From the NCBI RefSeq assembly GCF_900199515.1, contig NZ_LT963434.1, forward strand, positions 54,057 to 86,056: 32,000 bases of DNA, given 5' to 3'. The notes under the pieces are model-generated. The model searched no databases. It saw only the letters and a program-made list of their open reading frames with translations, and had not been told where the DNA came from. Shown piece by piece: positions 4,962 through 5,287 of the stretch. Position numbers and translations under genes: made by a program. The stretch is from Massilicoli timonensis (GTDB lineage: Bacteria > Bacillota_I > Bacilli_A > Erysipelotrichales > Erysipelotrichaceae). Position 1 is the first letter of the stretch; each line of letters starts with the position of its first letter.

Positions 4962-4990
4962 TTGTAAAAGGGTGTAAAAAATGTTAGAAT
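4962..4990 (+). promoter_or_regulatory. sigmaA-type promoter candidate (P1) upstream of the AGAC repeat
   Basis: TTGTAA at 4962-4967, a 17-nt spacer, then TAGAAT at 4985-4990 with an extended -10 TG at 4982-4983. Confidence 0.45.
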
Positions 4991-5032
4991 AACACTGGGA
5001 GAGAAATCTTGCCAAAAAAAAGCGAAAAGGGG

Positions 5033-5061
5033 TTGACAGCAATGCAGATGGTTGCGACAAT
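5033..5061 (+). promoter_or_regulatory. second sigmaA-like promoter candidate (P2) abutting the AGAC repeat
   Basis: TTGACA at 5033-5038, a 17-nt spacer, then GACAAT at 5056-5061. The predicted start site would fall inside the repeat. Confidence 0.35.
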
Positions 5062-5062
5062 T

Positions 5063-5120
5063 AGACAGACAGACAGACAGACAGACAGACAGACAGACAG
5101 ACAGACAGACAGACAGACAG
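5063..5120 (+). repeat. perfect tetranucleotide microsatellite (AGAC)14 + AG
   Basis: Counted directly: 58 nt of uninterrupted AGAC units. Confidence 0.98.
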
Positions 5121-5184
5121 TAAGGTAAAGTCTGCGCTTTTTTGCGCCCTTTTTTACGTAGTTACATTATTTAATAGCTTATTA

Positions 5185-5239
5185 GGCGTGTTGCGCCCGT
5201 GTAGAAACTATCACGGACGCGACGCGCCTTTGTTTGTCT
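5185..5239 (+). terminator. long GC-rich hairpin with U-rich tail (terminator/attenuator candidate) upstream of the Rrf2 gene
   Basis: A 17-bp stem pairs 5185-5201 with 5212-5228 (1 mismatch, 2 G-U pairs) around a 10-nt loop. It is followed by TTTGTTTGTCT. Confidence 0.5.
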
Positions 5240-5287
5240 AAAAATCAAACCAAGACCAGTGTGGATTGAGTTTTGCAAAGGAGGGAT

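Follow-up and report, generated by a model that had tools for sequence, protein, structure and literature searches.

An expanded, strain-variable AGAC microsatellite at the start of an Rrf2/adhesin/HU operon leader in Massilicoli timonensis

In our study, a stretch of 32,000 nucleotides from Massilicoli timonensis (Erysipelotrichaceae), hereafter called the window, was found to contain a perfect (AGAC)14.5 microsatellite of 58 nt on the + strand (5063–5120; all coordinates are window positions). The microsatellite lies at the head of the leader of an operon encoding an Rrf2 regulator, a cell-wall-anchored adhesin, and an HU-type DNA-binding protein. Comparison with two other lineages, in which the same leader holds only 3.5 and 4.25 units, indicated that a short (AGAC)3–4 element is ancestral and conserved at this place and was expanded into a long tract specifically in M. 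timonensis. Our leading interpretation, to which we give somewhat less than an even chance, is that of a slowly varying 5′-leader microsatellite, expanded from the conserved element, whose effect would be graded with length or nearly neutral. A sequence-only reading of the same DNA had proposed a phase-variable attenuation switch, in which the repeat number modulo 3 decides whether a translating ribosome disrupts a leader terminator. From that proposal, a real and strain-variable repeat, a credible terminator, and the recurring signals of a small open reading frame (mini-ORF) were upheld, but the frame switch itself was not supported.

The array at 5063–5120 was reported by Tandem Repeats Finder with a period of 4, 14.5 copies, 100% matches, and a score of 116, in agreement with the repeat described earlier, and it was the sole array scoring above 50 in the 32-kb window. 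The 12-mer AGACAGACAGAC occurred 12 times, against 0.11 occurrences expected from shuffles. As in simple sequence repeat contingency loci, the tract is uninterrupted and long enough for slippage. Its position likewise fits the promoter or 5′ untranslated region (UTR) of a surface-gene unit, yet the adhesin is a pseudogene here. Variation of the tract was surveyed by exact-protein look-ups for all recorded contigs with the Rrf2 protein of the window, and the contigs spanning the repeat came from six independent sources. The tract contained 14.5 units in four of the six samples (the window, L001/L078, L002/L080, and L048) and 10.5 units in the remaining two (L047 and L079), with no other length among these six. 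The 6.45-kb accessory island that carries the operon was nearly invariant among strains. The only island single-nucleotide polymorphism (SNP) exclusive to a subset of contigs, 7834 A>T, was common to both 10.5-unit contigs, which indicates that the 16-nt contraction to 10.5 units is one event inherited across hosts. The strain-to-strain variation that had been anticipated was thus seen as two lengths, but the change was clonal and neither length puts the mini-ORF in the read-through frame. The allele lengths are assembly consensus values, and heterogeneity inside samples cannot be seen in assemblies. Contig ends falling inside the repeat were rejected as a sign of heterogeneity and say nothing on this point, since Logan contigs, being built at k = 31, necessarily break there and assemblies of low coverage are unable to span 58 nt.

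The first of the two relatives is a metagenome-only lineage, named here the 86% lineage for the identity of its Rrf2 protein to that of the window, and at least 14 of its contigs were identical in the leader region. Its leader contained TTGACT-17 nt-CACAAT, T, (AGAC)3.5, and GTAAAGTCTGTTCTTTTTTGCGCCCTTTTTT, followed by a large hairpin, and the homology detectable by blastn between this lineage and the window begins at the repeat. The second is a Lachnospiraceae genome (L034) with an Rrf2 protein of only 42% identity, whose gene precedes that of a DUF7601 adhesin of more than 1657 aa. The L034 leader contained AGGGGTTGACG-17 nt-TAGAAT, CTT, and (GACA)4.25, followed by a hairpin in which the repeat pairs with CUGUCU, a U-run, and two terminators. 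The leader motif was absent from 42 other Rrf2 loci examined. When genome contigs were searched with Rrf2, the top match was found in Amedibacillus dolichus (52%), and the upstream region was unrelated at 37 of 38 loci, L034 alone being informative. Of two metagenome scans, the one that used a pattern extending across the repeat found 0 matches, and the one that used the hairpin core returned one contig, which belonged to the 86% lineage. Plasmids searched at the DNA level gave no match, and viral contigs contained no relative of Rrf2. The motif scan of viral contigs gave 7 matches, five of which were irrelevant coding sequences. The viral candidates L094 (5707–5780), L095, and L100 were rejected as leader homologues, being in-frame (ACAG)6–8 tracts within phage PAPS-reductase-like genes. 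The viral (ACAG)6 and (GACA)8 tracts encode TDRQ repeats; the unit is the same as in the window, and the setting is coding and unrelated.

Two promoter-like sites on the + strand, both named in the sequence-only reading, were recovered by the promoter scan. The upstream site, P1 (4962–4990), consists of TTGTAA-17-TAGAAT with an upstream TG. The second, P2 (5033–5061), is a predicted sigma-70-type promoter with TTGACA-17-GACAAT and a TG (10/12), and it was the top promoter-like match within 4400–6000. The repeat begins 1 nt past the −10 hexamer of P2 in the window, and the predicted P2 start falls at about 5067–5069, inside repeat unit 2. Equivalents of P2, both with 17-nt spacing, were present in the 86% lineage (TTGACT-17-CACAAT) and in L034 (TTGACG-17-TAGAAT), and the distance from the −10 hexamer to the repeat was 1–3 nt in all three lineages. 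The similarity of the spacers was at chance level (4/17 between the window and L034). Because the hexamers, the 17-nt spacing, and the position are kept while the spacer sequence shows chance similarity, there is strong indirect evidence that P2 is a working promoter, from which transcription would start inside the repeat. The earlier reading had allowed for this as a fallback, noting that the repeat would lie at the transcription start or in the early 5′ UTR if P2 were real, and it is the arrangement favoured here.

The signals of a mini-ORF overlap P2. A Shine-Dalgarno-like AAGGGG (5027–5032, + strand) abuts the −35 hexamer and precedes ATG 5042 by 9 nt. The ATG opens a predicted + strand mini-ORF of 28 codons (5042–5128), in which the repeat is read as (RQTD)n. 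Translation gave the product MQMVATI(RQTD)4RQTVR* of 28 aa with the stop at 5126–5128, as had been described, and this stop lies in the loop of a small hairpin (hairpin 1) formed by the end of the repeat. The 10.5-unit allele has a 21-codon mini-ORF ending at TAA 5121. The equivalent ORFs of the 86% lineage and L034 have 12 and 14 codons, respectively, and their stops also lie in the hairpin-1 loop. Each of the three lineages has its ATG at the identical distance of 3 nt from the end of the −35 hexamer. The Shine-Dalgarno-like block AGGGGTTGAC is identical in the window and L034, and the 86% lineage has AAGGACTTGAC there. The peptide starts were not conserved (MQMVATI, MPKPFTI, and MFAEFRIL). 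The ATG at 5042 is inside the 17-nt spacer of P2, and transcripts from P2 would therefore lack it; P1 is the only promoter that would be able to put the mini-ORF on a transcript. The sequence of P1 is not homologous to that of the relatives, and each relative still has a + strand promoter-like site 71–126 nt upstream of its P2 equivalent.

These recurring signals would suit an ancestral ribosome-mediated attenuation, in which a ribosome stopping in the hairpin-1 loop blocks hairpin 1, and in which the expansion lengthens the peptide and alters the frame. We consider this explanation unlikely. It draws on the AGGGG or AAGGA found 9–10 nt before the ATG at the same position in three lineages, on a stop that falls in the hairpin-1 loop whatever the lineage or allele, and on the upstream promoter-like sites. 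Hairpin 1 with its U-run was also flagged as terminator-like in the 86% lineage by a simple scan, and ribosome-dependent attenuators exist in Bacillota, for example in the tet(M) leader of Tn916. However, the ATG lies in the conserved P2 spacer, the peptide is not conserved, and hairpin 1 is weak in every lineage (−5.5 to −10.9 kcal/mol). Even with hairpin 1 blocked, the strong terminators that follow it would remain as obstacles. Three lineages give no statistical power to separate the promoter and mini-ORF readings or to trace covariation. Translation of a mini-ORF on longer transcripts is possible.

Hairpin 1 (5110–5143, + strand) is formed by the last CAGAC units, which pair with GUCUG (5130–5134), and is followed by U6 (5138–5143). 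Its energy was −5.5 kcal/mol in the window (z ~0), −8.0 kcal/mol in the 86% lineage, and −10.9 kcal/mol in L034 (z = −2.1). The phase of the 3′ arm varied (GUCUGU versus CUGUCU) and the loop was 7, 10, or 11 nt long, yet the arm always complemented the repeat. Such variable phase and loop length with kept complementarity is more easily explained by RNA pairing than by a fixed operator for a dimeric protein. The competing proposal is that the last units together with GTCTG make up an inverted-repeat operator for Rrf2, so that the expansion shifts the operator by 4 nt per unit and weakens autorepression. Regulators of the Rrf2 family act as winged-helix dimers on palindromic sites and frequently control their own genes, and in each of the three lineages the −10 hexamer is directly followed by an inverted repeat. 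The half-sites of the candidate operator, however, are 7, 10, or 11 bp apart with varying phase, which would be hard for a dimer of fixed spacing, and hairpin 1 as an operator for an Rrf2 dimer is disfavoured on these grounds; we give it little credence.

A very stable structure of the leader is the predicted terminator on the + strand at 5184–5239, which consists of a 17-pair GC-rich hairpin (5184–5229) and the U-rich tail UUUGUUUGUCU. The main hairpin folded with −31.7 kcal/mol (z = −6.3) and no shuffle folded as well, which bears out the GC-rich hairpin and U-rich tail noted from the sequence. The sequence of the terminator is unique in the window, and its place, after the leader ORF and before the first structural gene, is that of the intrinsic terminators of attenuators. 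The hairpin is upstream of Rrf2 as had been stated, but the gap from 5239 to ATG 5288 is 48 nt, not 47. The 86% lineage has the same hairpin, which differs by a single U.G to U-A change and by two changes in the loop, and its U7 tract is better than the interrupted U-tract of the window. In L034, the counterpart is a long GC-rich hairpin and U-run of analogous form, followed by a second terminator. The hairpin at 5184–5239 is a credible leader terminator conserved in a relative, and the comparison indicates that leader terminators are a shared feature, present without the long repeat. No family for the leader was found in Rfam 15, whether the gathering or the E-value threshold was applied; the best match in 4850–5320 was symR (E = 6.6), and the sole match in the window was a T-box.

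The frame switch proposed earlier depends on this terminator. Repeat lengths equal to 2 modulo 3 (for example, 15.5 or 12.5 units) would let ribosomes cross 5184–5239 and turn the operon ON, and other lengths would leave it OFF. The arithmetic is exact. After the repeat, two frames stop at 5121 and 5126, and only the third, starting at 5122, is open (KVKSALF...APLFV*) to 5239–5241, so the ON frame would close exactly where the terminator tail does. The stops of two of the three frames were brought into the hairpin-1 loop by a TAAG insertion that is specific to the M. timonensis lineage, and the conserved Shine-Dalgarno-like motif, ATG, and stop-in-loop, as well as the upstream promoter-like sites, are also on the side of a switch. 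However, the ON frame was present in neither allele, since the 14.5-unit form stops at 5126 and the 10.5-unit form at 5121, and the six independent samples held no ON-frame allele, the change between alleles being clonal. The mini-ORFs of both alleles end 57–63 nt before the main hairpin and overlap only the weak hairpin 1; they do not reach a terminator or antiterminator, as the leader ORFs of ribosome-mediated attenuators do. The relatives have terminators, but their tracts of 3.5–4.25 units are too short to switch, and terminator control would therefore have been ancestrally independent of a frame switch. No start codon for the read-through frame was found before the hairpin in the 86% lineage, the lineage in which this was checked. 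Between the window and the 86% lineage, the read-through frame carries 8 non-synonymous changes (of amino acids or stops) against 1 synonymous change.

Folding also failed to supply the switch with an antiterminator, as a fold with the 3′ arm of the terminator blocked gave no strong competitor for the 5′ arm. Apart from GUCUG, the best pairing partner for the repeat was the tail UUUGUUUGUCU (5229–5239), which matches three AGAC units in 11 pairs at −13.3 kcal/mol, and both tail substitutions relative to the 86% lineage raise the complementarity to AGAC units; this repeat-tail complementarity was not significant against shuffles (p ~0.065). The Bacillota are classed among the bacteria whose RNA polymerases outrun ribosomes, with transcription and translation uncoupled (PMC13323073). 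Such uncoupling would weaken any ribosome-coupled antitermination. The target adhesin is a pseudogene, and P2 transcripts would not carry the ATG. Taken with the missing ON allele and the short tracts of the relatives, these points leave the control of terminator read-through by repeat number modulo 3 unsupported, and we regard it as very unlikely, even though ribosome-mediated attenuators exist in the phylum. There is likewise only a slim chance that the mini-ORF is translated from transcripts of the upstream promoter, that the position of the ribosome governs the terminators, and that the expanded tract makes this control frame-dependent, with lengths equal to 2 modulo 3 heritably ON. To our knowledge, no microsatellite-driven translational attenuation switch has been described, and one would be new if true.

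If the tract is instead a slowly varying leader microsatellite, as we favour, slippage would have grown it to 10.5–14.5 units at the start of the Rrf2/adhesin/HU leader. The ancestral element would have been the 5′ arm of the first small hairpin with its U-run, with one or two strong intrinsic terminators before Rrf2. The leader of M. timonensis has one complementary 3′ arm only for the repeat, and because of this the expansion would add 30–45 unpaired nt ahead of hairpin 1 and push the leader structures away from the promoter. The consequence would be a heritable, slowly changing effect on the operon mRNA, set by length rather than by length modulo 3. In Bacillota, as known from work on B. 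subtilis, 5′-terminal stem-loops protect mRNA from 5′-end-dependent decay, and a longer tract would therefore plausibly lower expression. Lower expression is the likeliest direction of any effect, and it would come from a 5′ end more exposed to such decay or from a change in early elongation.

Since the island of M. timonensis is decaying, the effect there may also be near neutral. Constraint has left signs of being relaxed in this species, namely the weakest hairpin 1 of the three lineages, the interrupted U-tract of the terminator, and two fixed frameshifts in the adhesin gene. The adhesin of the 86% lineage is a single ORF of 1286–1464 aa, which is collinear with the window in frames 1, 2, and 3. 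The first frameshift is a +1 nt change beside the C6 run at 6299–6304 and the second (+1) lies within the indel-rich 7181–7280. The identical three adhesin ORFs were present in all conspecific contigs, and the target of the proposed switch is therefore a fixed pseudogene in M. timonensis.

Neutral expansion, in which the tract is a slippage by-product in a leader that no longer matters, has to be weighed at this point. On this view, the main cargo of the island, the adhesin, is already dead, and the number of units would make no functional difference. It is almost as likely as the reading we favour, since hairpin 1 is weakest, the U-tract is interrupted, and the adhesin is dead, although taken by itself it is still rather improbable. 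It agrees with the presence of both frameshifts in every conspecific contig, with a hairpin 1 and a terminator U-tract that are degraded relative to the relatives, and with the finding of two alleles only, which track haplotype in a species where most strains are without the island. It agrees less well with the intact state of Rrf2, HU, and the 593-aa surface protein also encoded in the island. The perfect 58-nt tract moreover suggests recent or continuing slippage and not old decay, and homologous operons in relatives bear switch-like elements.

Several points weigh against a slowly varying, length-graded leader repeat. An extra + strand promoter-like site stands upstream in all three lineages, and longer transcripts bearing the mini-ORF are possible. 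The AGGGG and ATG kept in L034 and the stop-in-loop kept in all lineages are left unexplained if only a promoter was conserved. The transcription start is a predicted one, and the protection of mRNA by 5′ stem-loops enters as general background. Finally, assemblies give consensus lengths only, so fast switching within populations could be hidden behind them.

One of the two closest described counterparts is the AGAT repeat in the 5′ UTR of uspA2 of Moraxella catarrhalis, which sets the level of adhesin expression (Attia and Hansen 2006, J Bacteriol 188:7840, summarised in PMC4679880). As in that summary, a tetranucleotide repeat lies here between the promoter and the start of the surface-gene unit, with strain-dependent copy numbers (6–23 there and 10.5–14.5 here). 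The effect at uspA2, as far as it is summarised there, is on the level of expression and involves no reading frame. Unlike the summarised uspA2 case, the present repeat occurs in a Gram-positive gut commensal and not in a respiratory pathogen, a regulator gene comes first, strong leader terminators follow the repeat, and any effect on expression is a predicted one. The other counterpart is hmw1A of Haemophilus influenzae, in which a transcribed 7-bp repeat in the 5′ UTR sets the adhesin level, and expression falls as the repeat lengthens (PMC12721329). The AGAC tract resembles it in its predicted transcription as part of the 5′ UTR and in pairing, as the left arm of a hairpin, with a complementary segment further on. 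The hmw hairpin, however, is long, with 10 repeats paired, and is cleaved by RNase III, whereas hairpin 1 has 5–7 bp with a single GUCUG. No long stable repeat hairpin of the hmw1A type was found in the leader of the window, where pairing with GUCUG gave −5.5 kcal/mol and z ~0.

For a phase-variable leader terminator, a described precedent is provided by cwpV of C. difficile, where site-specific inversion by RecV creates or destroys a terminator in the leader (PMC2784873). Both there and in the switch proposed for the window, a heritable DNA change lies 3′ of the promoter of a Gram-positive surface gene and is proposed to act through an intrinsic leader terminator. Here, in contrast, the sequence of the terminator is constant and the microsatellite varies, and neither a recombinase nor flanking inverted repeats are present in window 4500–11300. 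The attenuators of E. coli pyrBI and Tn916 tet(M) have a short leader ORF ahead of an intrinsic terminator, whose hairpin can be blocked by a translating ribosome. Those systems respond to a metabolite or a drug, whereas the frame-switch proposal uses a frameshift in the repeat as its signal. The invertons of gut bacteria are invertible promoters with small serine recombinases (reviewed in PMC11868660). A search of 4500–11300 in the window found neither promoter-flanking inverted repeats nor a recombinase gene. In this the window differs from two homologous operons, in a lineage of 69% identity (the 69% lineage) and on plasmid pGTC3, which have both.

Rrf2/surface-protein operons homologous to that of the window were found elsewhere with switch-like elements. 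In the 69% lineage (L062–L066, ~2153–3030), a 206-aa serine recombinase is encoded directly upstream of Rrf2, and inverted repeats at 2760–2804 and 2885–2922 flank about 80 bp with the near-consensus promoter TTGACA-17-TATACT. This candidate invertible promoter faces away from Rrf2/adhesin in all five contigs. The E. faecalis plasmid pGTC3 (L091; NZ_KY303941, 3181–6194) encodes a 200-aa recombinase, followed by 27-nt inverted repeats (3812–3838/3907–3933) that flank a TAGACA-17-TATAAT promoter facing Rrf2, and a leucine-rich-repeat surface protein is encoded after Rrf2. A Clostridium baratii plasmid has Rrf2 paired with a 1002-aa Ig-like protein. Pairs of Rrf2 and a surface protein therefore give the impression of a widespread module, in many cases mobile and with a tendency to be preceded by switch-like DNA, and the operon family, which joins an Rrf2 regulator to a giant wall-anchored protein, appears prone to stochastic switching. 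These settings raise the prior that the AGAC tract once mattered, without indicating the mechanism. In a further contig (L088), an Rrf2 homologue (59% identical) precedes an autotransporter gene, and a G8 run lies at ~2335–2342, 166 nt upstream, in a weak promoter-like context (TTGCGG...TAATAT).

Variation of surface-protein expression driven by repeats is well studied in Gram-negative pathogens and rarely so in gut Bacillota. In the present case, distant lineages have kept a short tetranucleotide element where the leader begins, and one of them has expanded it. A repeat that tunes expression would offer a tractable commensal example of a pathogen-style contingency mechanism; a repeat without such an effect would show how a regulatory element expands after the decay of the gene it served. 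The conserved combination of promoter, mini-ORF, small hairpin, and strong terminators is itself an undescribed cis-regulatory arrangement.

Between hairpin 1 and the terminator, the leader contains a small GCGC-U6-GCGC hairpin (5134–5155, + strand) followed by CCCUUUUUU, and the 86% lineage has the identical sequence. When the leader takes its minimum-energy fold, CCCUUUUUU (5147–5155) pairs with the ribosome-binding site of Rrf2, AAAGGAGGG (5277–5285), and it could be an anti-Shine-Dalgarno element. The downstream unit was found as earlier described, with its genes on the + strand and its domains supported by Pfam matches. The Rrf2 gene with its ribosome-binding site occupies 5279–5710 (AGGAGGG at 5279–5285; start ATG 5288 or TTG 5291; PF02082, E = 2e-26). 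The broken gene of the cell-wall-anchored adhesin extends over 5707–8468 as ORFs 5707–6312, 6155/6251–7321, and 7305–8468, whose fragments contain SpaA, DUF7601, and DUF5979 domains and a C-terminal VPQTG anchor. The gene of the HU-type DNA-binding protein follows at 8529–8822 (PF00216, E = 2e-32) and is the last gene in common with the 86% lineage, the homology of contig L074 running to window position 8699. In four contigs of the 86% lineage (L052–L055), the module adjoins a 566-aa large serine recombinase, and genes for TnpV and RhuM were present in one context. The flanking genes differ among contigs, which indicates that the module of this lineage travels on mobile DNA.

In M. timonensis, window position 4649 was joined straight to 11104 in 7 conspecific contigs (L067–L073; flanks 98.4–99.6% identical), and the Rrf2/adhesin/HU/surface-protein unit is therefore an accessory island. 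The island spans 4650–11103 (6.45 kb, + strand) and contains a remnant ORF, the leader, Rrf2, the adhesin pseudogene, HU, and the 593-aa surface protein; most of the conspecific contigs read were without it. Its junctions are at ~4635–4649 and 11104–11118, with an overlap of about 15 nt and TTTTTTnT at either end. The insertion point is directly 3′ of the terminator hairpin of a DUF1540 gene (4596–4642), and no recombinase gene was found inside the 6.45-kb island. Exact matches to the DUF1540 protein (4439–4600) were recorded far more widely than those to the Rrf2 protein of the window. A 52-nt direct repeat with 90% identity was found between 4845–4896 and 10721–10772, the latter copy covering the 3′ end of the 593-aa surface-protein gene and the sequence downstream of it. 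Because 4845–4896 repeats this 3′ region, 4667–4900 looks like a leftover of an earlier copy of a surface-protein gene of the 593-aa type. Outside the island, a T-box leader was found at 424–622 (Rfam RF00230, 135.8 bits), upstream of a 418-aa ORF at 638–1894, and the counterpart of this ORF in contig L078 contains a tRNA-synt_1b domain of the tyrosyl-tRNA synthetase type.

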